Shown piece after piece: positions 2,808-30,881 of a stretch of 32,000 bases of DNA. Source of the stretch: Cryptosporangium minutisporangium (GTDB lineage Bacteria > Actinomycetota > Actinomycetes > Mycobacteriales > Cryptosporangiaceae). The DNA lies in assembly GCF_039536245.1 (NCBI RefSeq), contig NZ_BAAAYN010000057.1, positions 37,457 to 69,456 on the forward strand, written 5' to 3'. The translations under genes and the position numbers were made by a program. The notes below the pieces were generated by a model. That model was not told the origin of the DNA. It did not search any database and saw only the letters and a list, made by a program, of their open reading frames with translations. How positions within the stretch are numbered: position 1 is the first letter of the stretch; every line of letters starts with the position of its first letter.

Positions 2808-3812
2808 ATGCTCCCGCAGGTCGTCCGCACAGAGTTCCTCCCCCTGGTGGAAACACAGCTGACGCACCAGGACGCCCTAATGGGACGCCCGAACGTGGTC
2901 GGGGTGGGCCTCGGCCACAAGTACAGCGGCGGTATCAACACCGGGGAGCGGGCGATCACGGTCCTCGTCCACCGCAAGATCGACGCCCGGTATCTCGCAC
3001 CGAAGGCGATGGTGCCGACCGAGCTCGAGGGCGTTCCGACCGACGTGCAGGAGGTCGGGCTGATCCGGGCCGGCGGTGGCCCGCCGCCCTGGGCCGACCG
3101 GGGCGCCACCGCGTCGCTGGGTGTCGGCCCGTTCCAGCTCGGACAGCGGGTGCGGCCGGCGTTCGCCGGGGTCAGCGTCGGGCACTACCGAGGCAACGCG
3201 GGCACGCTCGGCACCGGGTGCTTCGACGTGCTCCCGCAGGCCGCCGATCCCGGCCGGTACTACATCCTGAGCACCAACTACGCCCTGGCCGACTGCAACG
3301 CCGGCCGGACGGGGGACCCGATATTGCAGCCGGCCCTGGTCGACGGTGGCCGATACCCAGCCGACGTGATCGGCGGGCTGGTGCGCTTCGTGCCGATCCA
3401 GTTCCACGACGGTGCCCGCAAACCGGTCAACCTCGTGGACGCGGCGATCGCCGAGGCGGTGCACGACGCCGACAGTCGGGTCTATTGGGCCGGCGAGGTG
3501 AAGACGCTCAACGCAGCACCGAACATCAACGACACCGTCCAGAAGTGGGGGCGCACGACCACCTTCACGACCGGACACGTACTGAACATCAACGCGACCG
3601 TCGACGTGCACTACGACGGTGATCGGATCGCCCGGTTCGGCCAGCAGATCGTGACGACCGGCATGTCCGCCGGCGGAGACTCCGGCAGCCTCGTCACCGA
3701 CCCCGACGAGGGCGCCGTGGGCCTGCTGTTCGCCGGCTCCGGCCGGGTCAGCGTCCTCAACAACATCGCCGCCGTCCAATCGCTGCTGGGTGTCCGTGTC
3801 ACCGAGGACTAG
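2808..3812 (+). CDS. Chymotrypsin-fold (S1-like) serine-protease homologue without a signal peptide; His57-equivalent position is Tyr
   Basis: Pattern AGTLGTGCFDV...YYILSTNYALAD (where TNxHV is expected), VDAAIAE (Asp) and GDSGS (Ser). GAAGGGA lies 7 nt before ATG 2808. Confidence 0.8.
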   Translation: MLPQVVRTEFLPLVETQLTHQDALMGRPNVVGVGLGHKYSGGINTGERAITVLVHRKIDARYLAPKAMVPTELEGVPTDVQEVGLIRAGGGPPPWADRGATASLGVGPFQLGQRVRPAFAGVSVGHYRGNAGTLGTGCFDVLPQAADPGRYYILSTNYALADCNAGRTGDPILQPALVDGGRYPADVIGGLVRFVPIQFHDGARKPVNLVDAAIAEAVHDADSRVYWAGEVKTLNAAPNINDTVQKWGRTTTFTTGHVLNINATVDVHYDGDRIARFGQQIVTTGMSAGGDSGSLVTDPDEGAVGLLFAGSGRVSVLNNIAAVQSLLGVRVTED

Positions 3813-4357: not shown

Positions 4358-4849
4358 GTGACCATCTCGGGCTCTGAAGTCACCACCACGTCGGAGACGG
4401 TGTTCGTCATCGACGTCAACGACCGGTTCGCGCACCTGTTCACCAGCGTCAAAGACCTGCTCGGCACGCATGAGGCCACCCACGCGGACCCCCCGCGAGG
4501 GCTCGACTTCTTCGACCAGGACGGCCACCGGCTCGCGCCGGCGTTCGACGACAAATGGCAGCTGACCGGCCTCGTCAAGACCAACGAGAAGCCGGACCCG
4601 GCGGCCGTGCAGGCGCGCCTCGCAACAGTGTTCGCGTTCCTCGCCCGGTACACCGCTGAGCACCCGACGCAGATCGCCGACGACTTCGGTCTGAGCGTCG
4701 ACGAGGCGCTCGGCGAGTTGCCGCAGCTGGACGGCAGGACGCTGGCCGAGAGCATCGCCGCGCTCAGCGCCGTGACCCACGCGGCACCGGAGCCGGGCAC
4801 GCAGGAAGACTCCGGGAGCTGGTTCCACAACTTGATGCACAACATCTGA
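4358..4849 (+). CDS. Hypothetical protein (163 aa), first gene of the kinase-astacin cluster
   Basis: C-terminal part of ORF 4010..4849. Third-position G/C becomes high only from GTG 4358 (GAGG at 4347-4350). The upstream part of that ORF is Arg/Cys-rich with poor GC3. No recognisable motifs. Confidence 0.6.
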   Translation: MTISGSEVTTTSETVFVIDVNDRFAHLFTSVKDLLGTHEATHADPPRGLDFFDQDGHRLAPAFDDKWQLTGLVKTNEKPDPAAVQARLATVFAFLARYTAEHPTQIADDFGLSVDEALGELPQLDGRTLAESIAALSAVTHAAPEPGTQEDSGSWFHNLMHNI

Positions 4850-4873: not shown

Positions 4874-7800
4874 ATGCGCATACCTTCTCTGCCCGGACTT
4901 TCGCCCCGCGGTGTCGCGGGGGCGCTGGTCGTCGTCCTGGTCGCGACGGCCGTCCTCATCGGACAGGTCGCGGCCACCGACGTCCCGGACGCAGGCCCGG
5001 TGGGGATCAGCATCGCGGTCGCCCTCAGCTGCACCGCGATGGGTGTGCTCATCCTTCTCGCCGTACCGCGGCACCTGGTCGGCCGGCTGCTGCTGGCAGC
5101 CGGCGCCAGCGCCACCGTCGGCACGCTCGCGGTGAGCTGGACCAGGTGGGAGCCGGTCGCCTGGCTCAGCCAGTGGACCTGGTGGCCGGCGTATGGGCTG
5201 CTTTTCCTCGCCCTCCTGGTCTTCCCCGACGGTCGATTACCCGGTCGTCGCTGGCGCGCGCTGGCAATCGTGCTCGTCGCGGTGACGATGCTCGGCGCAG
5301 TCGCGCTCGCCATCGGTGCGTTGGACGAACCGCGGACGCTTCTCAGCCAGGTCGGCGACAAGACTCCCTTCGCGCGCTTGCTCCTCCGGATCTTCGCGGT
5401 CGCGCTGTTGTTCACGGTTCTCGGGGCGATCGGCGTCCTGGCTGCACTGTGGTTCCGCTGGCGTCGCGCTGACGGGGAGACCCGGCAACAGCTCGCTTGC
5501 CTGCTTCCGGCGGTCGCCCTATTCCTGCTGGGCTGGTTCGCGGACTTTTTCAACCTGTCGGGCGGCTACGTGATCGCGACGGTCGCGGTCCCGCTGGGGA
5601 TGACCGTCGCCATCGTCCGGTACCGGCTCTACGACCTCGACCGGGTGCTCAATCGCACGCTCGTCTGGCTGGTCATGACGTTGCTGGTCGTCGTCGGCTT
5701 CGTCGCGATCGTCACCGTGCTCCGCGAGATCGTCATGCGGAACACGTCGGCCGACTCGATCTCGCTGGTCACCACCGGCCTGATCGCGATCGCGTACGCG
5801 CCGCTGCACCGCCGCGTCCAGCAGGGCGTCAACCACCTGCTCTACGGCGATCGGCACGATCCTTACAAGGTCATCGCCGGCCTCGGCGACGTGCTCGGCC
5901 AGACTGCCGAGCCGAATGCCGTGTTGCCGCTGCTCACCGGCACGATCGCCAGCTCGCTCCAGGTGCCGTACGTCGCCGTGGAGGTCGAGGAGCAGCGCGG
6001 CGCCCGCCTGCTCGCCTGGTACGGCCGGGTCGGACCCACCGTCCAGGCGTTCGACATGATCTCCCGGGGCGAGCACATCGGACGGCTACTCGTCTCGCCG
6101 CGGACCGACGGCGGGCACTTCACCCCGCGGGAGACCCGGCTGCTGGCCGACATCGCGTTGCACGCCGGGGTCGCCGTGGAGGCCAGCCGCCTCACCCGTG
6201 ACTTGCAGCTGTCGCGGGAGCGGTTGGTGCGCGCGCAGGAGGAGGAGCGTCGGCGACTGCGACGCGACCTCCACGACGGGCTGGGGCCGAGCCTCACCGG
6301 CATGTCGATGCAGGTGCGGGCCGCGCGGAAGTTGGCGGGTCCGGGGCGGGTCCGCGACATTCTGGACGCGCTCGCCGGTGACCTGGCCGCGTGTACGGCG
6401 GAGGTTCGGCAGCTCGTCGACGAGTTGCGTCCACCGGCGTTGGACCGCGGTTTGGCGGTGGCGCTGCGGGACGAGTGCCGCCGCTTCGACAGTGCGGCAC
6501 TCTCCGTCCAGCTGGATCTGGACGACGACCTCGACCGGTTGCCTGCCGCCGTCGAGGTGGCCGCGTACCGGGTCGTCGCGGAAGCGCTGAACAACGTCGC
6601 GCGGCACGCCAGCGCGCGGGCCTGCGTGGTCAGCGTGCGTCGCGGGCGTGATCTGACGATCGAGGTCAGCGACGACGGGGTGGGGATCAGCGGGCCGGTG
6701 CGGTCCGGGGTCGGGTTGGCCTCGATGCGGGACCGTGCCGGTGAGCTGGGTGGCGACTGCGAGATCCTGCCGGCGCAGCCGCACGGCACCACGGTGCGCG
6801 TCCACTTCCCGGCCGGGTCGCTGATGCTGGTGCGGCCGCCGTCGACGTCGGTCATCGAGCCGCCCGCCCTGGCGAACGGCAACGCCCCCCACGTTGCCGC
6901 AGCCCTCTCCCCGGCGCCGACCGCCCCCGCTGCGCCCGGCGGGTCGGCGCCGCCGCCGGGACCGGCCGCGAGCGGCGCGACCACGACGGTCGCCGACGTC
7001 ACGGCGGCGCCGGCGCTCACCACGAACACAACAGACACGCCGGCCGCCACCGACGGCTCCGCCACCGACGGCTCCGCCACCGACGGCTCCGCCACCGACG
7101 GCTCCGCGGCGGACGGTGCTGTCCCCGACGGTCCTGCCGAGGACGGCTCGGCGGACAGCCTGGCGAGCACGCGCGTGCAGCTCTGGGCCAGCGGTCTCGT
7201 TCCCTACGAGATCGCGCCCGGAATCGGCCCCGACGAGCACGTCGCCGACGCGATCGCCCACCTGGAGAGCCGCACCCACATCCGGTTCGTCCCGCGAACC
7301 ACCGAGAACGCCGTCGAACATCCGAACTACGTCCGCTTCGTGCTCGGCGACTCGTTCGCGTCCCAGGTCGGCTGCGTCGGCGGTGAGCAGCAGATCGAGC
7401 TGCTGGCCGGCGCGGAGATGGGACGCGTCCTGCACGAGATCGTCCACACGCTCGGCCGCTGGCACGAGCACTGCCGGGCCGACCGCGACCAGTACGTCAC
7501 CATCCAGTGGCCGAACATCGCACCGGAATCCCGGCCGAACTTCCTGATCCAAGCCACCGACCCGGATGACGGCCCGTACGACTACGAGTCGATCATGCAT
7601 TACCCCCGGATCGCCTTCTCGATCAACGGCGAGCGGACGCTGGAGACGCTCCGGCCGTTGCCCGCCGTGCCTCCGGGCCTCCCGGTGGGCCAGCGGCGCC
7701 GCCTCTCCGACGGCGACTGCCGGGTGATCGAGCGGATGTACCGCACCGCGCCCTCGGTGCCGTCGCCGGCGGTGGAGCGGCGCCTCACACAGCCGGTCGA

Positions 7801-8146
7801 CGCCGGCATGGTCACCGGAACCTTGCAGCTGCCGGCCGACGGGCCGTCCGGACGCGCGGCCACCGTCACGGTCATCATTCGCGACACGACGACAACGGGG
7901 GGTCCGATGCGAAGCGTGGGCGAGGCGGTGCTGGTGGACGTCCCGCTCGCGCCCGGCGGGAGCGTTCCGTTCCGGGTGCCGGTGGCGGAGGTCGATCCGG
8001 CGGCGATCTACACCGTCGAGGCGCATGTGGACGTTCAAGGTGACGGCGCGATCGCGACCGGAGACCTGGTCACCGCCCGGGCGTGCGCGGTGCTGACCGG
8101 CGGCGCGCCGACCGAGCTCGCCGTTCCGATGACGAGCGTGGTGTGA
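4874..8146 (+). CDS. Multi-pass sensor histidine kinase (HisKA_3 + HATPase_c) fused to an astacin-family (M12A) zinc metalloprotease domain and a C-terminal YbaY/YscW-like domain
   Basis: Single 1090-codon frame. H-box RRDLHDGLGPSL (His codon 6272-6274). N-box AEALNNVARHA and DDGVGI. Pro/Ala/Thr/Asp linker. HEIVHTLGRWHEHCRADRD (7433-7489). Met-turn SIMHY (7589-7603). YbaY-like tail from about 7811. Confidence 0.85.
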   Translation: MRIPSLPGLSPRGVAGALVVVLVATAVLIGQVAATDVPDAGPVGISIAVALSCTAMGVLILLAVPRHLVGRLLLAAGASATVGTLAVSWTRWEPVAWLSQWTWWPAYGLLFLALLVFPDGRLPGRRWRALAIVLVAVTMLGAVALAIGALDEPRTLLSQVGDKTPFARLLLRIFAVALLFTVLGAIGVLAALWFRWRRADGETRQQLACLLPAVALFLLGWFADFFNLSGGYVIATVAVPLGMTVAIVRYRLYDLDRVLNRTLVWLVMTLLVVVGFVAIVTVLREIVMRNTSADSISLVTTGLIAIAYAPLHRRVQQGVNHLLYGDRHDPYKVIAGLGDVLGQTAEPNAVLPLLTGTIASSLQVPYVAVEVEEQRGARLLAWYGRVGPTVQAFDMISRGEHIGRLLVSPRTDGGHFTPRETRLLADIALHAGVAVEASRLTRDLQLSRERLVRAQEEERRRLRRDLHDGLGPSLTGMSMQVRAARKLAGPGRVRDILDALAGDLAACTAEVRQLVDELRPPALDRGLAVALRDECRRFDSAALSVQLDLDDDLDRLPAAVEVAAYRVVAEALNNVARHASARACVVSVRRGRDLTIEVSDDGVGISGPVRSGVGLASMRDRAGELGGDCEILPAQPHGTTVRVHFPAGSLMLVRPPSTSVIEPPALANGNAPHVAAALSPAPTAPAAPGGSAPPPGPAASGATTTVADVTAAPALTTNTTDTPAATDGSATDGSATDGSATDGSAADGAVPDGPAEDGSADSLASTRVQLWASGLVPYEIAPGIGPDEHVADAIAHLESRTHIRFVPRTTENAVEHPNYVRFVLGDSFASQVGCVGGEQQIELLAGAEMGRVLHEIVHTLGRWHEHCRADRDQYVTIQWPNIAPESRPNFLIQATDPDDGPYDYESIMHYPRIAFSINGERTLETLRPLPAVPPGLPVGQRRRLSDGDCRVIERMYRTAPSVPSPAVERRLTQPVDAGMVTGTLQLPADGPSGRAATVTVIIRDTTTTGGPMRSVGEAVLVDVPLAPGGSVPFRVPVAEVDPAAIYTVEAHVDVQGDGAIATGDLVTARACAVLTGGAPTELAVPMTSVV
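7046..7150 (+). repeat. In-frame 15-bp tandem repeat (4 perfect + 3 degenerate copies) encoding (ATDGS)n in the kinase-protease linker
   Basis: GCCACCGACGGCTCC occurs at 7046, 7061, 7076 and 7091 (identical copies). Degenerate copies start at 7106, 7121 and 7136. Confidence 0.9.
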
Positions 8147-8184
8147 TTCCGGTGAGCGCGTGGGCGTTCCAGGGAGGCACACCG

Positions 8185-8832
8185 GTGGACGAGCCGAAGC
8201 GGGTCCTCATCGTCGACGACCACCCCGTGGTCCGCCGCGGCCTGAAAGTGATGCTGGAGGGCGAGGCCTGGGTGAGCGAGGTCGCCGAGGCGGCCAGCGT
8301 CGAAGAGGCCGTCCGCGAGGCGATCACCTGCCACTCCGACGTCATCGCGATGGACGTCGTCCTGCCCGACGGCGACGGGATCGACGCCACCCGCCGGATC
8401 CTCGAGGCGTGTCCCGACGCGGCGGTCCTGATGCTCACGATGGCCGACGACGACGACATCGTGGCCAAGGCCCTCAACGCCGGCGCCCGGGGGTTCCTGC
8501 TCAAGGACACCGATCCGGACATGGTGATCGATGCGCTGCGAACGGTTGCCAGCGGGGGAGTGGTCCTCGGGCCGCGCGTCGGACCGACCGTCCTCACCGC
8601 GCTGCGCCGGGCCCCGGCGGTGCTCCCGCCTCCGTTCGACCAGCTCACGACGCGGGAGCTCGACATCGTCAACCGGCTGGCGTGCGGCGACACCAACGCG
8701 CAGATCGCCCGCCACCTCAACGTCAGCGAGAAGACGATCCGTAACCAGATGTCGGCCGTGTTCAACAAGCTGAACGTCAGCGACCGCGTGCAGGCGGCGT
8801 TATTGGCCCGCGACGCGGGGATCGTCCGTTAG
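8185..8832 (+). CDS. NarL/LuxR-family response regulator (REC + HTH)
   Basis: ORF 8083..8832. Preferred start is GTG 8185 (GGGAGG at 8171-8176). KRVLIVDDHPVVRRGL, MDVVLPDGDG, and a C-terminal LTTRELDIVNRLACGDTNAQIARHLNVSEKTIRNQ helix-turn-helix. Confidence 0.9.
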   Translation: MDEPKRVLIVDDHPVVRRGLKVMLEGEAWVSEVAEAASVEEAVREAITCHSDVIAMDVVLPDGDGIDATRRILEACPDAAVLMLTMADDDDIVAKALNAGARGFLLKDTDPDMVIDALRTVASGGVVLGPRVGPTVLTALRRAPAVLPPPFDQLTTRELDIVNRLACGDTNAQIARHLNVSEKTIRNQMSAVFNKLNVSDRVQAALLARDAGIVR

Positions 8833-17915: not shown

Positions 17916-18875
17916 TCAGGCCGGCACTCCGAACAGGCGGAGCAGCGACGGGTCGGCGAACGTCACGCAGCGCTGGATCAGGCCGCCGGCCACCGTGAAC
18001 ACCTGGAGCGAGTGAGCCCTGACCCCTCCGGTGGCCGGATCCGGTGCGTAGGCGGCCAGGGCCGGGCTCCCGTTGGCGCGTACGGGCAGCAGGCGCCAGC
18101 CGGACCCGCGCAGATCGAACACCCGCTCCATGAACTCGCGGTAGTGCGCCCGGCCGGTGAGCCAGAGCGCTACCGGCGGCATCTCCAGCACGACGTCGTC
18201 GGCGAGCAGCCGAGTCAGTCCGGGCACGTCGGCGGCCTCGAACGCGGCCAGATACCGCTCGACCACGGCACGTTCGTCGGGGTCGGCGGGCTCGCGCCAC
18301 TCGTCCAACGCCGGGCCGGCGGCCCGCAGCGTGGCCCTGGCGCGCTGCAGACTGCTGTTCACCGACGCCACGCTGCTGTCCAAGACGTGCGCCACCTCGC
18401 TGGCCGGTAGCTGCAGCACATCGCGCAGCACCAGCGCCGCGCGCTGCCGCGGGGGCAGGAGTTGCAAGGCGGCGACCAGGGCCAGCCGCAGCCCCGCGCG
18501 CTGCTCGGTGACGTCCGCGGGGTCGCCCCAGGCCGGGTCGCCCAGCCGGGCGTCCGGGAACGGTTGCAACCACGGGACGTCGAGGCTCGGTGTCAGCGCC
18601 GCCTGCGGGTCGTCGCCGGGCGGGCCCAACCCGCTCGGCAACGGACGGCGGACCCGGCCCTGCAACGCGCTGAGGCAGGCGTTGGTGGCGATCCGGTGCA
18701 GCCAGGTGCGCAGCGACGCCCGCTGCGGGTCGTACCGGTCGGCCGCCCGCCAGGCCCGCACCAGCGTCTCCTGGACCAGGTCCTCGGCCTCGTCGAACGA
18801 TCCGAGCATCCGATAGCAGTGCGCCAGCAGGTCACCGCGGTAGGCCTCGTGCTCCTCCTGCGTCGGCGCCGCCAC
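17916..18875 (-). CDS. ECF sigma factor with fused C-terminal NTF2/SnoaL-like domain (SigG / TIGR02960 / ECF56-like)
   Basis: [28 protein letters not shown] (region 2), RQRAALVLRDVLQLPASEVAHVLDSSVASVNSSLQRAR (region 4), then an NTF2-like extension of about 120 aa. GTG start. Confidence 0.9.
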   Translation of the reverse strand: MAAPTQEEHEAYRGDLLAHCYRMLGSFDEAEDLVQETLVRAWRAADRYDPQRASLRTWLHRIATNACLSALQGRVRRPLPSGLGPPGDDPQAALTPSLDVPWLQPFPDARLGDPAWGDPADVTEQRAGLRLALVAALQLLPPRQRAALVLRDVLQLPASEVAHVLDSSVASVNSSLQRARATLRAAGPALDEWREPADPDERAVVERYLAAFEAADVPGLTRLLADDVVLEMPPVALWLTGRAHYREFMERVFDLRGSGWRLLPVRANGSPALAAYAPDPATGGVRAHSLQVFTVAGGLIQRCVTFADPSLLRLFGVPA

Positions 18876-18994
18876 CCGCGCGAGCCTACGCCCGCAAATC
18901 TCGCTGCCCGAGACCGATGAGTTCGTCGCCCGGCCTCGGTACGTGCTGGATGAGGGCGGCCGGACCTGAGCCGCCGCGGCAGGAGGGAAGAGCG

Positions 18995-19570
18995 ATGGGC
19001 GACGTCATCGTCATTCAATTCACCACGTTGGACGGTGTGGTCTCCGACCCCGACGGGCGCTGGGGGACTGGCCACGGCGGCTGGGCGTTCCGGTACGGGC
19101 CGGGGCCGGTCAGCGACGACAAGTTCCGCCTCGGAGCGCGGATGGAGCACGGCGTCCAGCTCTACGGGCGGCGGACGTGGGAGCACTTCGCCCGGCTCTG
19201 GCCGAGTCGCGACGGCAGCTACGCCCAGCTGATGAACGCCGTGCCCAAACGCGTCGCCACCCGCACCGGCGTCGACCCGGCTGCGTGGTCGAACTCGGCG
19301 GCGATCGACGGCGACCCGGTGGTCTGGGCCGCCGACGAGCGCACCCGGCGCGACGTCGTCGTGATCGGCAGCCTGAGCTTGGTGCACACGCTGGCGGCGG
19401 CCGATCTGGTCGACGAGTACCGGTTGCTCACGTTCCCGACTGTCGTCGGGGCAGGCGACCAGCTGTTCGCCGCGGACGCGCCCGCCGACTTCCGGTTCAC
19501 GCTGGTGGAGCCCGCCGACATGGCGACGCTGACCGTGCTCCGCCGCCAACCGGCGGCGGAGCCCCGGTGA
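18995..19570 (+). CDS. Dihydrofolate-reductase-family (RibD C-terminal domain) protein
   Basis: ORF 18917..19570. Start is ATG 18995 (CAGGAGGGAAG upstream). IQFTTLDGVV..DPDG, LYGRRTWEHF, DEYRLLTFPTVVGAGDQLF. Confidence 0.8.
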   Translation: MGDVIVIQFTTLDGVVSDPDGRWGTGHGGWAFRYGPGPVSDDKFRLGARMEHGVQLYGRRTWEHFARLWPSRDGSYAQLMNAVPKRVATRTGVDPAAWSNSAAIDGDPVVWAADERTRRDVVVIGSLSLVHTLAAADLVDEYRLLTFPTVVGAGDQLFAADAPADFRFTLVEPADMATLTVLRRQPAAEPR

Positions 19571-19593: not shown

Positions 19594-20412
19594 CTACGGA
19601 CGCAGATCGGTTCTCGCTGCTCCGGTGTCGGTGTCGGCCGGCCAGGACACGTGCTGGTGCACCATCTGCCAGTCGCCTCCGAACCGTCGGAACACCCGGG
19701 TGCCGCGGGACCAGGTCTCGGCGACCGAGCCGTCCGGCTGCTCCGCGGTCATCCGGTTGAGTCCCCAGGAGACGGCCAGGTCGCCGCGGGCGACGATCCG
19801 CAGGTCGGGCACGGTCCAGGTAACGGTGCCGTCGACGGCGTCCAACCCGTCCGCGCAGACCGCGCGGACGCTGTCGAGCCCGGTGTACTGCAGCGGCGCG
19901 TCGTGCTCGTAGGAGACGACGTCCTCGGCGATGCCCGCCATCATGCCGTCCAGGTCCTTGGCGACCGTGTCGTCGAACCACCGCCGGTGCAGGTCCTCGA
20001 CGGCCAGCTCCGCCGCGCGGTCGCTGCCCGACGCGTCGGTGAACGAGTGGTGCTCGTGCGCCACCACCCATCGGCCGTCGTCCCGGCGCAGGCCGAGCGT
20101 CAGCCGAAGCCGACGGTCCGGATCGGCGGCCAGGTGCTCCGGCGTCCCGCAGCGCAGCAGCGCGTGGGCGAACGCGACGTCCGCACCCGCAGTGACCTCG
20201 AGCGACGTGATCTCGAACAGCGCTCCGGTCGCCAGCCACTCGAAGAACGGCGGCCAGCTCTTTCGGTACGCGTCGAGTCCGCGCACGCCCCTCTCCGGCG
20301 GCGGCACGTCGAACATCACGATGTCCTCGGCGTGGTCGGCCAGCACGCCGTCCAGGTCACCCGCCTGCACGGCGAGCGCCCAGCGTTCGATGAGTTCCCG
20401 AATCTCGTCCAT
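19594..20412 (-). CDS. Tandem NTF2-like (SnoaL/DUF4440-type) two-domain protein
   Basis: Two repeats of the pattern IRELIERWALAVQAGDLDGV...DGRWVVAHEHHS and VEDLHRRWFDDTVAKDLDGM...GGDWQMVHQHVS. Its start lies 30 nt downstream of the sigma-factor gene's stop. Confidence 0.8.
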   Translation of the reverse strand: MDEIRELIERWALAVQAGDLDGVLADHAEDIVMFDVPPPERGVRGLDAYRKSWPPFFEWLATGALFEITSLEVTAGADVAFAHALLRCGTPEHLAADPDRRLRLTLGLRRDDGRWVVAHEHHSFTDASGSDRAAELAVEDLHRRWFDDTVAKDLDGMMAGIAEDVVSYEHDAPLQYTGLDSVRAVCADGLDAVDGTVTWTVPDLRIVARGDLAVSWGLNRMTAEQPDGSVAETWSRGTRVFRRFGGDWQMVHQHVSWPADTDTGAARTDLRP

Positions 20413-20442
20413 GCCACTAGAACCCCGGGAAGGGGCTCGAAC

Positions 20443-21393
20443 TCATCGCTCCCGCGGAAGATTCTCCGGAAGACCGAACGCGGTCAGATCGGCGGTGAGG
20501 AACGAGACCACCTCGGCGACCCGGCCGCTCCGCACCGTGAGGACGTCCAGCCCGGACGGCCGGTAGACGTCGCCCTCGAGCAGATAGGTTCCGAACGCGA
20601 GCTGGCCGTTCGCCACCGTGGGCAGGAACCGCCAGCGATACGTCAGCGGTGCCTCGACCAGGAACCGCCGGATCGCGTCCACCCCCTGGTACCAGGCCAC
20701 CTCCGGCGGCATCGAGTACCGCGCGTCGTCGGCGAGCAGCGCGACGATCGTGTCGACGTCGCCGGCCTCCCACGCGGCCGCGTACCGCCGGGCCAGCTCT
20801 CGCACGGTCGGATCCTCGGGCGCCGCGGACGCGGACACCGCAGGCAACGCCCGGCGGGCGCGCTGCAGGGCGCTGTTGACCGCCGGGACCGAGGTGTCGA
20901 GGAACTCGGCCACCTCCCGCGCGGAGAACCCCTGCGCTTCGCGCAGGAGCAGCACCGCCCGCTGCAAACCCGGGAGGTGCTGGAGCGCGGCGACGAACGC
21001 GACCTCGAGGCTCTCCCTCGCCAGGGTCCCGCTCTGCGGATCCGGGTACGGCTCCAGCCAATGGGGGTCCGACGTCGCGCGCAGGTCGGTCGGGAGCTCC
21101 CGTCGCGCTCGCCCCTTCAACAGCGTGAGGCACCGGTTGGTGGCGATCCGGTACAGCCACGGACGCAGGGAGCGGCCGGGATCGTGCTCGTCGAACCGGT
21201 CGAGACCCCGCCAGGCCCGGACCAGGGTCTCCTGCACGGCGTCGTCCGCGTCGTGCACCGATCCGAGCATGCGGTAGCAGTGTGCGTGCAGCTCCGCGCG
21301 GAGGGGAGCGGCGAGTGTGCTGAACGCGTCGGCGTCACCGGCGCGGGCGGCGGCCAGCACCGACAGTGTTTCGGTCGAGAACCGGCCGCTCAT
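20443..21393 (-). CDS. Second ECF sigma factor with fused NTF2/SnoaL-like domain (paralogue of 17916-18875)
   Basis: [41 protein letters not shown] and [38 protein letters not shown], plus an NTF2-like C-terminal extension. Confidence 0.9.
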
Positions 21394-21402
21394 TCCCTGC
21401 CT

Positions 21403-21455
21403 CCTCGCGTCGGGGCGCCGCCCCAGCCTGCTACAGCCCTCTCTCCGACGCGAGG
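21403..21455 (-). other. Hairpin between the oxidoreductase stop and the sigma-factor start; the 3' arm overlaps the SD
   Basis: Perfect 11-bp arms CCTCGCGTCGG (21403-21413) and CCGACGCGAGG (21445-21455) with a 31-nt loop. On the minus-strand RNA the downstream arm runs into GAGGAGG, 6 nt before ATG 21393. Confidence 0.4.
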
Positions 21456-21465
21456 CCGCAGCGGA

Positions 21466-26953: not shown

Positions 26954-27103
26954 CGGATCGACCTGGTCGAGGTGTTGCACGTTCGTGTCCCCCATGACGG
27001 CGCCGAATGTGCAACGCCTGTGGCGAGTCCGGGGCATCCCCTATCGCTGGCATATCGAAAACCACATACGGACTGAGAACACTCGGCTGTCTTGACTAAA
27101 AGC

Positions 27104-28123
27104 ATGCCTGACAGCGAACAAGCCCGAACACTGGCGTCCTCGTCCTCGGCCGAGGCGCATCGAACGGGAATCACCGTCTACGGATGCGGGCCGGACGAGG
27201 CCGTCTTGTTCCGGAAGATGGCGCCTCGCTTCGGCATCGTACCGACGATCACCGAGGCGCCGATGTCCGAGGCCACCATTGAGTTGGCCGACGGGAACCG
27301 ATGTATCAGCGTCGGCCACAAGAGCCGAATCGCGAACTCCGATCTCCGTGCGCTCAGCCGGGTCGGTGTCGGGTACGTGTCCACGCGAAGCATCGGATAC
27401 GACCATATCGACGTCGGGTACGCGGAGAGCGTCGGCGTCAGGGTCGAGAACGTCGCCTATTCGCCGGACAGCGTGGCCGACTTCACGCTGATGCTGATGC
27501 TCATGGCGGTGCGGCAGGCCAAATCGACCGTCCGCCGCGCCGATGTCCACGACTACCGACTGAGCGAGATACGCGGGAAAGAACTGCGCGATCTGACCGT
27601 TGGAGTCGTCGGAACAGGACGCATCGGCGCGGCGGTCATCGATCGGCTGCGAGGTTTCGGCTGCCGAATTCTGGCCCACGACAGTCGCCCAACGGCCGCT
27701 GCCGACTACGTGGCCTTCGCCGAATTGCTGCAGCGAAGCGACATCGTCACGCTCCACACGCCGCTGACTGCGGACACGCACCATCTCCTGGATCGTCGAC
27801 GCATCGAGCAGATGAAGCGCGGGGCGTTCGTGATCAATACCGGTCGCGGCTCGCTTCTCGACACCGACGCTCTTGTCTCGGCGTTGGAGAGCGGCAGGTT
27901 GGGCGGCGCGGCGTTGGACGTCCTCGAAGGTGAGGAAGGGATCTTCTACACCGACTGCCGAGAGGGCTCCGTCGAAAACAAGCTGCTGCTGCGGTTGCAA
28001 GAGATGCCGAACGCGCTGATCAGTCCGCACACCGCCTATTACACGGACCACGCCCTGAGTGACACCGTCGAAAACAGTCTGATCAATTGTCTGGCGTTCG
28101 AGAACGGGACACGACATGGATAG
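27104..28123 (+). CDS. vanH: VanH, D-lactate (D-2-hydroxyacid) dehydrogenase
   Basis: ITVYGCGPDEA..., CISVGHKSRI, YSPDSVADFT, VGVVGTGRIGAAV, FVINTGRGSL and AALDVLEGEEGIFY match VanH almost motif-for-motif. The ORF opens at TTG 27092; ATG 27104 is preferred. The stop overlaps the vanA start by 8 nt. Confidence 0.9.
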   Translation: MPDSEQARTLASSSSAEAHRTGITVYGCGPDEAVLFRKMAPRFGIVPTITEAPMSEATIELADGNRCISVGHKSRIANSDLRALSRVGVGYVSTRSIGYDHIDVGYAESVGVRVENVAYSPDSVADFTLMLMLMAVRQAKSTVRRADVHDYRLSEIRGKELRDLTVGVVGTGRIGAAVIDRLRGFGCRILAHDSRPTAAADYVAFAELLQRSDIVTLHTPLTADTHHLLDRRRIEQMKRGAFVINTGRGSLLDTDALVSALESGRLGGAALDVLEGEEGIFYTDCREGSVENKLLLRLQEMPNALISPHTAYYTDHALSDTVENSLINCLAFENGTRHG

Positions 28124-29156
28124 GTTGAAGGTCGGCATCGTCTTCGGAGGTAGCTCGGAGGAGCACCCCGTCTCCGTCATCTCCGCGCGAGAGGTCGCGA
28201 ACAACCTCGACTCCGGCAAGTACGAGCCGTTCTGGATCGGGATCACGAAGAGCGGCGACTGGAAGCTCTGTGACGGTCCGGACGTGGACCTGGAGAGCGG
28301 TAGTTGCCGTCCGGCCGTGCTCTCGCCGGACCGGAACGAGCGCGGGTTGCTCGTGCTGGACGAGGGGAAATACGAGTCGGTCGGCCTCGACCTGGTGTTT
28401 CCCGTATTGCACGGCAAGCTTGGCGAGGACGGCGCGGTACAGGGTTTGCTGGAGCTCTCCGGCATCCCCTACGTCGGCTGCGACGTCCCGACCTCGGCCC
28501 TGTGCATGGACAAGTCTCTGACCTACCTGGTGGCTCGGAGCGTTGGAGTAGCCACGCCGAAGTTCTGGACCGTCACGGCGAGCGTTGACGTTGATCCGGA
28601 ATTGCTTCCCTATCCTGTTTTTGTGAAGCCGGCGCGTTCGGGCTCCTCGTTCGGCGTCACCAAAGTAGCTCGGGGAGAAGAATTGCGGAGTGCGGTGGAG
28701 ACCGCAAGACGGTATGACTCGAAGGTGCTGATCGAAGAGGCGGTCGTGGGTAGCGAGGTCGGCTGCGCGATTCTGGGCAACGATCCCGATTTGATCGCGG
28801 GTGAAGTGGATCGGATCGCGCTGTCCCATGGATTCTTCCGGATCCATCAGGAGAGCGAGCCGGAAAGCGGTTCCGAGAACTCCACTCCAGTCGTTCCCGC
28901 GGACATCCCGGCAGAGTCGCGCTCGCTCGTCCAGGAGACCGCGAAGACTCTCTATCGCGCCTTGGGCTGCCGAGGGCTGGCGCGGGTGGACCTGTTCCTC
29001 ACGGAAGACGGAACGGTCGTGCTCAACGAAGTCAACACTCTGCCCGGTCTGACCTCGTACAGCCGTTATCCGAGGATGATGGCGGCTGCCGGCTTGCCGC
29101 TCACCGAGGTGATCGATCGGATCGTGTCGCTCGCCTTGACCGGACGAGCCCGATGA
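28116..29156 (+). CDS. vanA: VanA-type D-alanine--D-lactate ligase
   Basis: LKVGIVFGGSSEEHPVSV, FPVLHGKLGEDGAVQGLLELSGIPYVGC, GFFRIHQESEPESGSENS (the His typical of D-Lac ligases), and ALGCRGLARVDLFLTEDGTVVLNEVNTLPGLTSYSRYPRMMAAAG. Confidence 0.92.
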   Translation: MDRLKVGIVFGGSSEEHPVSVISAREVANNLDSGKYEPFWIGITKSGDWKLCDGPDVDLESGSCRPAVLSPDRNERGLLVLDEGKYESVGLDLVFPVLHGKLGEDGAVQGLLELSGIPYVGCDVPTSALCMDKSLTYLVARSVGVATPKFWTVTASVDVDPELLPYPVFVKPARSGSSFGVTKVARGEELRSAVETARRYDSKVLIEEAVVGSEVGCAILGNDPDLIAGEVDRIALSHGFFRIHQESEPESGSENSTPVVPADIPAESRSLVQETAKTLYRALGCRGLARVDLFLTEDGTVVLNEVNTLPGLTSYSRYPRMMAAAGLPLTEVIDRIVSLALTGRAR

Positions 29157-29761
29157 ACGACGACTTCGTCTACGTGGACGACCTCGTGCCCGGGGTGCGG
29201 TGGGATGCCAAGTACGCCACCTGGGACAACTTCACCGGCAAGCCCGTGGAGGGCTACCTCGCAAACCGAATCGTCGGCACGAGGGTCTTATGCGCAGCTC
29301 TGGAAAGAGTGCAGGAACGGGCCGCGGACCTCGGCTTCGGCTTGCTTCTCTGGGACGGCTATCGCCCGCAGCGGGCCGTGGATAGCTTCCTGCGCTGGTC
29401 GAAACAGCCGGAGGACGGGCGGACGAAGCGACGGCACTATCCGAACATCGATCGAGCCGAGATGTTCGAGAAGGGGTATGTAGCGGCGATGTCGGGTCAC
29501 AGCCGAGGTAGCACGGTCGACCTGACGCTCTATGACTTGTCCACCGGTGAACTCGCTCCCATGGGCGGTGGCCACGATCTGATGGATCCGATCTCACATC
29601 ATGGCGCGAGCGGAATCACACCGGTCGAAGCGAGGAACCGGCAACATCTCCGTTCCGTCTTGGAGGCGTGCGGTTTCAGTTCGTACGGCTGCGAGTGGTG
29701 GCACTACACACTGCGGGACGAGCCGTATCCGGACACCTACTTCGATTTCCCGATCACCTGA
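29153..29761 (+). CDS. vanX: VanX, D-Ala-D-Ala dipeptidase
   Basis: ATGA overlap with vanA. RWDAKYATWDNFTGKPVEGY, LLLWDGYRP, SGHSRGSTVDLTLYD, EWWHYTL. Confidence 0.92.
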   Translation: MNDDFVYVDDLVPGVRWDAKYATWDNFTGKPVEGYLANRIVGTRVLCAALERVQERAADLGFGLLLWDGYRPQRAVDSFLRWSKQPEDGRTKRRHYPNIDRAEMFEKGYVAAMSGHSRGSTVDLTLYDLSTGELAPMGGGHDLMDPISHHGASGITPVEARNRQHLRSVLEACGFSSYGCEWWHYTLRDEPYPDTYFDFPIT

Positions 29762-30881
29762 TGTCGAGCGTCGTGTCACCGGACGCGGCCGGCAGCTGCA
29801 CCCTCACGTGGAGCCCTCCGGCGTCCCGGCGGGTGAGCGTGAGCGTCCCGTCGTGGGCTTGGGTGATGCTCTTGACGATCGCCAGGCCGAGGCCGAGGCC
29901 CGCTTGGTCACTGCGGATGCGTTCGGTGCCGCGCTGGAACGGCTCGGTGAGGGTCGAGATCAGCTGGGGAGTGAGCTTCTCGCCGGTGTTCTCGACGGTG
30001 AGCACGACGGCGTTGGAGTGAGCGGCGGTGGTGTTGACCCACACGGTGCCGTGGTCGGCGACGTTGTGGACGACGGCGTTGTGCAGGAGGTTGGTGGTCA
30101 GCTGCAGCAGAAGCGCGTGCGAGCCGACGGTGGGGGCGACGTCCCCGGAGGTCTCGATCGTGATCCCGTGCTTCTCTGCGAGCGGCAGCAGCGTTTCGGT
30201 GGCTTCCTCCGCGACCAGGGACAGGTCGACGTGTTCTCGGCTGAACGATCGCCGGTCGGCGCGGCTGAGCAGGAGCAACGCTTCGGTGAGATCGATCGCT
30301 CGGGTGTTGACGACGCGGAGGCGTTCCACGAGCTCGCCGGTGTCGCGGTTCGGATCGTTGCGCGCGACGTCGAGAAGGGTCTGCGTGATCGCCAGCGGGG
30401 TGCGCAGTTCGTGGGACGCGTTGGCTGCGAAGCGCTGCTGTTCGGCGACGTGCGCTTCGAGCCGCGCGAGCATGGCGTCGAAGCTGTCGGCGAGTTCGCG
30501 GAACTCGTCGGCATGGCCCTCCAACGCGATCCGGTGGGAGAGCGACCCCCTCGCAGCCATGCGGGTTGCGTCCGTGATTCGGGACAGGGGGGCCAGCATG
30601 CGGCCGGCCAGGATCCACCCCCCGAGCAGACCGAAAATCAGCAGGAACACCAACATCTCGATGGCCCGCGGGGCGAACGCGCGCTGGAGATCGTCGCGGT
30701 TGGGACCTCGGGGGAAGTGGCCGCCGGGGCCCGGCGGTGCTGAGACGTCGGGTACGTATCGCAAGAGGAACACCCACACGACCGCGAGCAGCATGGCGCC
30801 TGCGAGCATCAGGAACCCCGCGTAGCTGAGGGTGAGCTTCAGGCGAACGCTCAAACCACGCGGCCTATCCACGCTGGTCAT
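29754..30881 (-). CDS. vanS: VanS-type sensor histidine kinase (HAMP, HisKA, HATPase_c)
   Basis: Two N-terminal TM segments flank a short loop. H-box FAANASHELRTPLA. HNAVVHN and GLGLGLAIVKSI. Its start overlaps the vanR stop by 17 nt. Its stop overlaps the vanX stop by 8 nt (convergent). Confidence 0.85.
   Translation of the reverse strand: MTSVDRPRGLSVRLKLTLSYAGFLMLAGAMLLAVVWVFLLRYVPDVSAPPGPGGHFPRGPNRDDLQRAFAPRAIEMLVFLLIFGLLGGWILAGRMLAPLSRITDATRMAARGSLSHRIALEGHADEFRELADSFDAMLARLEAHVAEQQRFAANASHELRTPLAITQTLLDVARNDPNRDTGELVERLRVVNTRAIDLTEALLLLSRADRRSFSREHVDLSLVAEEATETLLPLAEKHGITIETSGDVAPTVGSHALLLQLTTNLLHNAVVHNVADHGTVWVNTTAAHSNAVVLTVENTGEKLTPQLISTLTEPFQRGTERIRSDQAGLGLGLAIVKSITQAHDGTLTLTRRDAGGLHVRVQLPAASGDTTLDIR

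Follow-up and report, generated by a model that had tools for sequence, protein, structure and literature searches.

A putative cytoplasm-facing astacin metalloprotease fused to a two-component sensor kinase in Cryptosporangium

Organisation of the kinase-astacin gene

The window, i.e., the whole 32,000 bp stretch of the Cryptosporangium minutisporangium contig NZ_BAAAYN010000057.1 analysed in this work (positions 37,457 to 69,456, forward strand), includes a gene coding for a sensor histidine kinase that runs in frame into an astacin-type metalloprotease and a small YscW-like domain. The gene is a single open reading frame (ORF) of 1090 amino acids (aa) plus a stop codon, with an ATG start and zero internal stops. 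The DNA is about 72% G+C, and the G+C content at third codon positions (GC3) is 0.85-0.96 throughout one frame, across the linker and up to the stop, after which the frame switches. Both the translation and the continuous GC3 bear out the uninterrupted frame of 1090 codons described in an earlier note on this DNA. The gene and its parts are as follows; AF2 stands for AlphaFold2, TM for transmembrane and TRF for Tandem Repeats Finder.

4874..8146, + strand: whole fused gene, sensor kinase, astacin and YscW-like domain (ORF, Pfam, GC3, fused orthologues)
4874..5845, + strand: polytopic membrane sensor region, residues 1-324, about 10 predicted TM helices (hydropathy, AF2)
5846..6124, + strand: GAF-like alpha/beta module, residues 325-417 (AF2, homologue names)
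6245..6442, + strand: HisKA_3 dimerisation/phosphoacceptor domain (Pfam)
6554..6814, + strand: HATPase_c catalytic ATP-binding domain (Pfam)
6824..7174, + strand: disordered Pro/Ala/Thr/Gly/Ser/Asp linker, residues 651-767, 117 aa (AF2, alignment)
7044..7107, + strand: perfect 15-bp tandem repeat encoding (TDGSA)n, within the linker (TRF)
7184..7744, + strand: astacin (M12A) catalytic domain (Pfam, 1AST, AF2)
7745..7801, + strand: variable-length spacer that joins the astacin to the C-terminal domain (CTD), residues 958-976 (alignment, AF2)
7802..8143, + strand: YscW/YbaY (pilotin-like) beta-sandwich domain (Pfam, Foldseek, partner alignment)

The proposed single frame, in which the kinase is followed by a linker, a complete astacin and a YscW-like domain and neither a TM segment nor a signal sequence separates kinase and protease, agrees with the Pfam and hydropathy results. 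A full-length AF2 model, built on an alignment of 73 sequences (mean predicted local distance difference test score, pLDDT, 77.7), consists of about 10 TM helices, the GAF-like module, a long hairpin of the dimerisation and histidine phosphotransfer (DHp) domain with the catalytic ATP-binding (CA) domain, a disordered stretch at 653-765, the astacin and a beta-sandwich at 977-1090. The N-terminal helices (11-33, 41-63, 68-88, 103-116, 126-151, 165-198, 201-225, 231-249, 255-286 and 293-324 in AF2) give Kyte-Doolittle peaks of 1.8-2.8 over 19 residues. An N-in/C-in topology would fit the loop charges, provided that the tenth helix (293-324) spans the membrane. No hydrophobic segment was found after residue 640, where the maximal 19-residue mean is 1.13; within the linker it is 0.79, which agrees with the earlier claim that the linker holds no hydrophobic stretch or TM helix.

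Both kinase families expected in the product were matched in the Pfam scan: HisKA_3 (PF07730) at residues 458-523 (E=2.7e-15, 57.1 bits) and HATPase_c (PF02518) at residues 561-647 (E=5.7e-11, 43.3 bits). The H-box RRDLHDGLGPSL with His467 (nt 6272-6274) is invariant in 9 orthologues, as are the N-box and G-box residues of HATPase_c across the aligned orthologues. By these matches the kinase part is a HisKA_3/NarL-type two-component sensor kinase, and phosphotransfer is predicted. It shares the TM sensor, the GAF-like module, HisKA_3 and HATPase_c with NarL-type polytopic kinases, the nearest models being MctS, UhpB, NarX and LiaS. The GAF-like designation of the segment behind the membrane region stands on the AF2 module (alpha/beta structure at 330-410, pLDDT >90) and on the NCBI name of homologues, 'GAF domain-containing sensor histidine kinase'; it did not extend to Pfam, as no family was matched there in the scan of the protein.

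The protease part (residues 771-957) matches the Pfam Astacin family (PF01400) with E=7.5e-36 and 124 bits at a cutoff of 22.5, covering profile positions 2-187 of 189, so the significance of this assignment is well above threshold. The astacin structure 1AST in PDB is matched with E=2.9e-29, and the domain is modelled with pLDDT >90. The zinc motif HEIVHTLGRWHEHCRADRD (residues 854-872, nt 7433-7489) corresponds to the family signature HExxHxxGxxHExxRxDRD, and the Met-turn SIMHY (residues 906-910, nt 7589-7603) includes the Tyr fifth ligand. The coordinates given earlier for His467, the zinc motif and the Met-turn were all exact. H854, E855, H858, G861, H864, E865, R868, D870-D872, M908 and Y910 are invariant in the alignment. 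Its profile match and catalytic motifs identify the domain as an astacin, for which zinc-dependent endopeptidase activity is predicted.

Conservation of the fusion

A homologue search over 5.8 billion proteins has found 8 other full-length proteins with HisKA_3, HATPase_c and Astacin (67-82% local identity). Their sources are Cryptosporangium japonicum, C. phraense, two Cryptosporangium sp. strains and metagenomes, and NCBI names them 'M12 family metallopeptidase'. When the nine fused proteins are aligned, every catalytic residue of both enzymes is invariant. At the DNA level the frame is continuous in three reference genomes (C. japonicum and two of Cryptosporangium sp.), and the junction is kept in the orthologues, with no stop or frameshift between kinase and protease.

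Ratios of nonsynonymous to synonymous substitution rates (dN/dS) were calculated by the Nei-Gojobori method for the window gene against four orthologues:

TM region: 0.26-0.33
GAF-like module: 0.05-0.12, the lowest of all segments
DHp and CA domains: 0.11-0.16
linker: about 0.4-1.1
astacin: 0.25-0.32
CTD: 0.30-0.32

At the codon level, this comparison shows the astacin and the CTD to be under purifying selection. Since the catalytic residues are intact as well, the protease is probably active.

The linker is the most variable part of the protein. It is disordered in the model (pLDDT about 30 at 653-765), and its length ranges from about 25 to 170 aa across the nine aligned proteins, never broken by a stop. 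The linker had been described as Asp-rich, which is true of this strain and does not hold in general: it is Asp-rich here because of the (TDGSA)n tandem repeat (15 bp x 4.3 copies, 100% matches, TRF score 128), and orthologues have 0-4 Asp in the equivalent 60 residues. The repeat looks like a recent expansion. A public partial protein of C. minutisporangium, P0008 (726 aa, 100% identical), ends about at the repeat, inside the linker; the repeat is a likely assembly break point, which would explain P0008 as a partial sequence.

Such a repeat-rich linker raises the question of an assembly or annotation artefact, i.e., two or three genes joined by a sequencing error. The break of the same-species assembly in the repeat is consistent with it, and so is the split made by a gene caller at an internal GTG in a related contig, L001. 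This reading is effectively refuted by sequence comparison: at least 8 other sequences, assembled independently and in part located on contigs of 313-744 kb, have the frame equally unbroken, GC3 is continuous and no internal start is conserved. The L001 frame runs without a stop from the astacin into the linker, of which more than 200 aa can be read before the contig ends; the split-gene form P0121 (329 aa), which has the look of a stand-alone astacin with CTD, was therefore rejected as a truncated fusion. Separate translation of the protease from an internal start is also unsupported, because the invariant Val768 is encoded by GTC in one orthologue; near the protease there is no in-frame start codon with a Shine-Dalgarno-like motif, and none is conserved.

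We also searched 1.84 billion representative sequences with the HATPase_c, linker and astacin segments and viewed the best 150 (at least about 139 bits). No second kinase-astacin fusion was present among these 150, more divergent fusions scoring below about 139 bits being possible. The other matches covering several stretches were tandem astacins, CUB/EGF astacins, caspase with astacin and astacin with Peptidase_C70, and were set aside. They include P0209 (974 aa), a caspase C14 with a C-terminal astacin, and P0215 and P0297, in which an astacin is combined with an AvrRpt2-like Peptidase_C70. Four close astacin relatives (P0122, P0123, P0127 and P0128) have no evident signal peptide and carry C-terminal repeats KDPIQDTLKEVR or PPKGW followed by a helical tail.

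An astacin without prosegment and disulfides

Canonical astacins consist of a signal peptide, a prosegment with the F-x-G-D(I) Asp switch and a catalytic domain (PMC9848320). The signal peptide and the prosegment are both absent from the fused protein, which has no hydrophobic segment after residue 640 and no F-x-G-D. The propeptide motif is present in 85 of 191 related astacins versus 0 of 10 members of the fused clade. The earlier note had speculated that the Asp-rich linker acts as a propeptide. This was not borne out and the idea was rejected, as the linker is variable in length, has no conserved Asp, evolves almost neutrally and is accompanied by no F-x-G-D in any of the ten.

The cysteines have changed along with the prosegment. 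The equivalents of Cys64 and Cys84 are Cys in 172 and 177, respectively, of the 191 related domains, and are replaced with Phe/Tyr (Cys64) and Gly/Ala (Cys84) in all ten clade members. In the window protein Cys42 is replaced with His and Cys64 with Phe, Cys84 falling in a gap or being Gly/Ala; position 42 is His, Arg or Ser in the clade. The alignment shows that the fused clade has lost the F-x-G-D Asp switch and the Cys64-Cys84 disulfide. From the general use of disulfides in exported actinobacterial proteins, a domain that has come to fold in the reducing cytoplasm would be expected to lose a conserved disulfide, and the loss seen in the alignment fits such a location. Two other cysteines are conserved in the clade: Cys867 (nt 7472-7474), located in HEHC right after the zinc-site Glu-His, is invariant in all members, and Cys949 (nt 7718-7720) is kept in all but one.

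Compared to the M12A astacins (crayfish astacin 1AST, meprins and BMP-1; the bacterial flavastacin and myroilysin, and the Legionella effector LegP), the domain shares the full catalytic domain, the zinc signature, SxMHY and the Tyr ligand. It differs from them in having no signal peptide, neither an Asp switch nor the Cys switch of myroilysin, and neither the Cys42-Cys198 nor the Cys64-Cys84 disulfide, and in its position on the predicted cytoplasmic end of a kinase. Flavastacin and myroilysin are the sole bacterial astacins with biochemical and structural characterisation in a 2023 review (PMC9848320). The best-matching NCBIfam model is that of LegP (NF045530), and its score, 182.9 bits versus an equivalog cutoff of 300, indicates that the domain is related to LegP and is not LegP.

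One could also imagine the domain to be a non-catalytic pseudo-protease that senses zinc or a ligand or, as a scaffold, modulates the kinase. The loss of the propeptide and the disulfide does show that 'classical' constraints are relaxed, and inactive metallopeptidase homologues are known in conflict systems (PMC8195603). With Glu855, the three His, the Met-turn, the Tyr ligand and every other catalytic residue invariant in all clade members, we regard such a role as very improbable.

The C-terminal domain and a signal-less two-gene cassette

The assignment of the CTD to the YbaY/YscW pattern stands at the level of fold and of a weak profile match. PF09619 (YscW) scores 17.2 bits in the full protein, under the cutoff of 22.6, and 23.0 bits, barely over it, when the domain is scanned alone; YscW was matched in 8 of 8 clade members. 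A domain-only AF2 model (pLDDT 72, predicted template modelling score 0.67) was used as a Foldseek query, and the only significant PDB matches were two secretin pilotins: AspS (5WEC, E=1.9e-5, template modelling scores 0.69/0.75) and the YscW-family member ExsB (2YJL, E=7.6e-4). Judging by this model, the CTD has the pilotin beta-sandwich fold. The part of the assignment that fails concerns the signal peptide and lipobox of those lipoproteins. Neither is present, the CTD being internal to the chain and its free-standing relatives having no hydrophobic N-terminus. Thus, the domain has the beta-sandwich fold of YscW/ExsB, the AspS pilotins and Escherichia coli YbaY and a weak but consistent PF09619 match, whereas those proteins are exported outer-membrane lipoproteins of diderms with a signal peptide and a lipobox, which the CTD and its free-standing relatives lack. 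To our knowledge, actinomycetes, to which Cryptosporangium belongs, have no secretins.

The origin of the CTD became apparent when an astacin-CTD profile was run on species-representative genomes. The full match was found in three Cryptosporangium species, and elsewhere as two neighbouring genes in distant phyla (L008, L009, L011 and L013). Together with four sampled long contigs (L056 to L059), the cassette loci come from cyanobacteria, Acidobacteriota, Desulfobacterota and Bradyrhizobium:

L008:4782-7933, Syntrophaceae: astacin (257 aa), YscW-like protein (116 aa, 31 bits), caspase C14
L009:3006-6860, uncultured bacterium: astacin, YscW-like protein (122 aa), C14 (88.7 bits)
L011:4704-5989, Pyrinomonadaceae: astacin, YscW-like protein (120 aa, 37.7 bits), two unknown genes
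L013:4719-8415, Bradyrhizobiaceae: astacin, C14, unknown gene, YscW-like protein (opposite strand)
L056:3808-9414, L057:5001-8547, L058:1338-5375 and L059:2565-7007: further cassette spans

L013 and L057 were counted as one of 7 distinct cassette loci. An apparent match including the CTD in L023 turned out to be a secreted multidomain astacin and was discarded as irrelevant.

The 113-122-aa partners of L008, L009, L011 and L013 align with the CTD from the first residue to a shared C-terminus. Because of this end-to-end alignment, the CTD can be regarded as a whole partner gene fused in frame. The spacer before it varies in length (P0003 has an insertion of about 60 aa), has pLDDT <50 at residues 963-976 and, by the same comparison, is likely to be a remnant of the ancestral intergenic gap at 958-976. 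A profile search found at least 232 free-standing partners of 113-130 aa, many of them in filamentous cyanobacteria; free-standing relatives score 24.6-37.7 bits with YscW. They are too short to hold a signal peptide and the domain, though they are labelled 'YbaY family lipoprotein' in databases.

In 4 of 4 sampled long contigs an astacin gene is located within about 2.4 kb of the partner, with a caspase/CHAT gene nearby. The astacin is adjacent to the partner in L056 and L059, is the gene after next in L057 and lies two small ORFs away in L058. Caspase/CHAT genes are present in 6 of the 7 distinct loci, none being detected by Pfam in L011; a bDLD1 death-like domain was found in one sampled locus and an nSTAND1 protein in another. 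Hydropathy revealed no signal-like N-terminus in the astacins, partners or caspases of any of these loci.

The cassette astacins (38-49% identity to the window domain) and their partners are thus homologous to the fused parts and likewise free of signal peptides, and L008, L009 and L011 have the gene order of the fusion, astacin then partner. They differ from the fusion in being separate genes, in retaining both the Cys pair and a prosegment motif (F-E-G-D or F-E-G-C), in having a caspase-like gene nearby and in the lack of a kinase. F-E-G-C replaces F-E-G-D in L013:4719-5546, L009:3006-4193 and L056:3808-4830, which points to a myroilysin-like Cys switch in a clade that also has Asp-switch forms.

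The earlier note had started from the premise that both C-terminal modules descend from exported proteins. This premise was not confirmed, as the homologues of the CTD are signal-less proteins of about 120 aa encoded next to signal-less astacins. The puzzle of exported domains without an export route largely dissolves, since the protease and the CTD derive from a signal-less two-gene cassette. No published description of a cassette of astacin, YscW-like protein and caspase was found in the literature searched; the Aravind-lab papers on conflict systems do not describe it, astacin appearing there only via a reference and metallopeptidase effectors in passing.

Two cassette loci, one of them from Scytonema hofmannii (L056:249-7248 and L059:1599-4559), also include domain types that are typically extracellular (CAP, GH17, LysM/3D, crystallin and a LysM-GH19-astacin fusion), here without signal peptides and around the astacin, YscW-like and caspase genes. 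The only protein with a signal peptide in these two loci is thaumatin-like and has 17 Cys.

Insertion of the protease module into a three-gene signalling module

The fused gene is flanked by the two other genes of a conserved three-gene module:

4358..4849, + strand: small conserved gene 5' of the kinase, product of 163 aa, start codon GTG, without a Pfam match (alignment with homologues)
8185..8832, + strand: cognate NarL/LuxR-type response regulator with REC and GerE domains (Pfam Response_reg 1.6e-25, GerE 3.3e-16)

The small gene is separated from the kinase start by a 24-nt gap, and its product ends in a conserved GSWFHNLMH motif. Homologous genes of about 165 aa are located directly 5' of the kinase in L002 and L004, which have the fusion, as well as in L003 of Plantactinospora, which lacks it. 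As the protein is always encoded directly upstream of the kinase, fused or not, it is likely to be a third component of the signalling module. The regulator gene, likely starting with GTG at 8185 and preceded by AGGGAGG at 8171-8177, is found 3' of the kinase in all fused and unfused loci examined.

The nearest unfused kinases, from Micromonospora, Plantactinospora and Actinoplanes (55-62% identity), end after HATPase_c. They have the same small gene upstream and the same regulator downstream, and none of them carries a protease. Gene order and homology show that an older module consisting of the small protein, a HisKA_3 kinase and a NarL-type regulator exists without protease in related actinomycetes. 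As this module is shared by fused and unfused loci, the protease module appears to have been inserted between the kinase and the regulator. A disordered Pro/Ala/Gly/Ser/Thr-rich C-terminal tail of 50-164 residues is present in 27 of 103 unfused homologous kinases.

The position of the insertion bears on the question whether the two enzymes cooperate at all. The kinase gene might only lend expression and anchoring to a housekeeping or defence protease that works independently of kinase signalling. The linker, disordered, very variable in length and nearly neutral, would suit such an uncoupled fusion; the ancestral cassette works without any kinase, and no kinase-astacin fusion was seen outside the clade among the best 150 representatives. 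Against this, the in-frame junction has been kept through a synonymous divergence (dS) of about 0.5-0.8 despite a repeat-rich, indel-prone linker, and the insertion site is within an operon, precisely where the kinase gene borders on that of its regulator. We consider the absence of any functional coupling unlikely.

Two genes 5' of the kinase, 2808-3812 (+) codes for a signal-less trypsin-like serine protease with an NAL1_N (NARROW LEAF 1) N-terminal domain and a GDSGS motif. It occupies the same place in C. japonicum (L002:4300-5307) and is absent from the unfused Plantactinospora locus. No caspase C14 or CHAT gene was found among the window genes scanned by Pfam, and tRNA and Rfam scans of the window returned nothing. 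Further away, 17916-19004 (-) and 20443-21465 (-) code for two extracytoplasmic function (ECF)-type sigma factors with fused C-terminal SnoaL-like domains, and a double-SnoaL/DUF4440 protein is encoded between them (19594-20442). The 27000-30000 region has a G+C content of 0.62-0.65 versus about 0.72 elsewhere and few high-GC3 ORFs, and may be acquired DNA.

Possible mode of action

Overall, with moderate confidence, we propose the fused protein to be a cytoplasm-facing, membrane-tethered astacin metalloprotease which, together with its YscW-like partner domain, is coupled to a two-component sensor. The earlier suggestion of a zinc endopeptidase tethered to such a sensor on the cytoplasmic side is supported, with no export signal detected after the kinase. 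In the Cryptosporangium lineage, an astacin-partner pair would have landed between the kinase and regulator genes and been fused in frame to the disordered C-terminal tail of the kinase, both cassette genes being fused to each other as well. The kinase core, linker, protease and partner domain would all be cytoplasmic and held at the membrane by the sensor of about 10 helices. There, the protease could cut a cytoplasmic or membrane-proximal substrate, which would give the signalling module a second, proteolytic arm in addition to phosphotransfer to the regulator.

Latency or specificity would probably come from the YscW-like domain, as an inhibitor or adaptor, from the tether, or from both. 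Small co-transcribed beta-protein inhibitors of bacterial metallopeptidases are known, such as potempins and serralysin inhibitors (PMC9890683). By analogy, and as the prosegment has been lost, the obvious candidate for a regulator or adaptor is the YscW-like domain. The analogy with potempins and KLIKK peptidases, serralysin inhibitors and staphostatins, where a small (about 100-130 aa) all-beta protein is likewise encoded beside a metallopeptidase gene (PMC9890683), is a functional one: those proteins are exported lipoproteins with an OB-fold or an 8-stranded barrel, and inhibition by the YscW-like partner is putative.

The tether may also have a role in activation. In canonical astacins the free N-terminus is buried against the Glu next to the third His of the zinc site, on its C-terminal side (E865 in the window protein, invariant). 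As this residue would bury a free N-terminus, cleavage of the linker could both activate and release the enzyme.

Several considerations weigh against the proposed cytoplasmic, kinase-coupled protease. Canonical activation needs a free N-terminus, and a permanently tethered domain has none. The hypervariable linker speaks against a rigid allosteric connection between kinase and protease. The signal peptide calls in this work are based on hydropathy and therefore crude. All characterised astacins are extracellular (PMC9848320); LegP, which we considered as a precedent for a cytoplasmic astacin, was ruled out since it is secreted as a substrate of type II and type IV secretion systems (T2SS/T4SS; PMC6617341). 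The surroundings of the cassettes hold cell-wall-directed protein types (LysM, GH17/19 and CAP), which would be appropriate for action outside the cell, e.g., after lysis.

The last two points agree with a different scenario, in which the linker is cleaved and the astacin-CTD part is released from the cell by a non-classical route or by (possibly programmed) lysis, to act on foreign or extracellular substrates as characterised astacins do. The signal-less LysM, GH17/19 and CAP proteins accompany caspase-like proteases typical of suicide and conflict systems, and the conserved E865 would suit activation by a new free N-terminus. On the other hand, no signal peptide, TM helix or recognisable secretion motif follows the kinase, the conserved disulfide pair was lost specifically in the fused clade, and no caspase or other cassette component was found among the window genes scanned by Pfam. 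Action outside the cell is therefore improbable in our opinion, and keeps some weight because of these signal-less neighbours and the extracellular location of all characterised astacins.

A stronger form of the cytoplasmic reading would be a true signal-gated intracellular protease, in which the conformation or phosphorylation of the kinase controls the astacin via the YscW-like domain or linker cleavage and a specific cytoplasmic target is cut. Candidate targets would be the small upstream protein, the regulator or a developmental factor. We put this version forward tentatively, and with more doubt than confidence.

Significance of the fusion

Searches of full-text literature for an astacin combined with a histidine kinase, or for kinase-metalloprotease architectures in general, gave nothing relevant, and the 2023 review of astacins does not mention a kinase (PMC9848320). 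As far as the searched literature shows, there is thus no characterised histidine kinase with an astacin, as the earlier note had stated. As public databases already contain the sequences, generically named, what is described here is an uncharacterised variant of known parts rather than a set of new proteins.

Bacterial astacins are seen as sporadic imports in animal-associated bacteria, and histidine kinases normally signal by phosphotransfer. In a free-living soil actinomycete, an astacin that is catalytically intact by sequence and placed on the predicted cytoplasmic end of a kinase touches on the extracellular view of the family. It suggests that the action of astacins, considered to be extracellular enzymes, can extend to the interior of bacterial cells, in this case in a link with a signalling protein. 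The ancestry of the window astacin lies in a widespread family of astacins without signal peptides, which are paired with a YscW-like protein and caspase-like proteases; this cassette is also of interest in itself, and the partner domain may represent a metalloprotease regulator of a new type. With an endopeptidase covalently attached to a conserved kinase, proteolysis would become an additional output or a feedback, and the system is compact and easily tested: one gene, clear point mutants (H467 and E855) and a culturable genus.

If the protease is indeed gated by the signal, it would be a direct, irreversible proteolytic output besides transcription, parallel to the caspase-linked cassettes, and might serve abortive defence or the sporangium/zoospore life cycle. 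Bacteria would then possess a native intracellular branch of astacins, and not solely extracellular enzymes acquired from animals.

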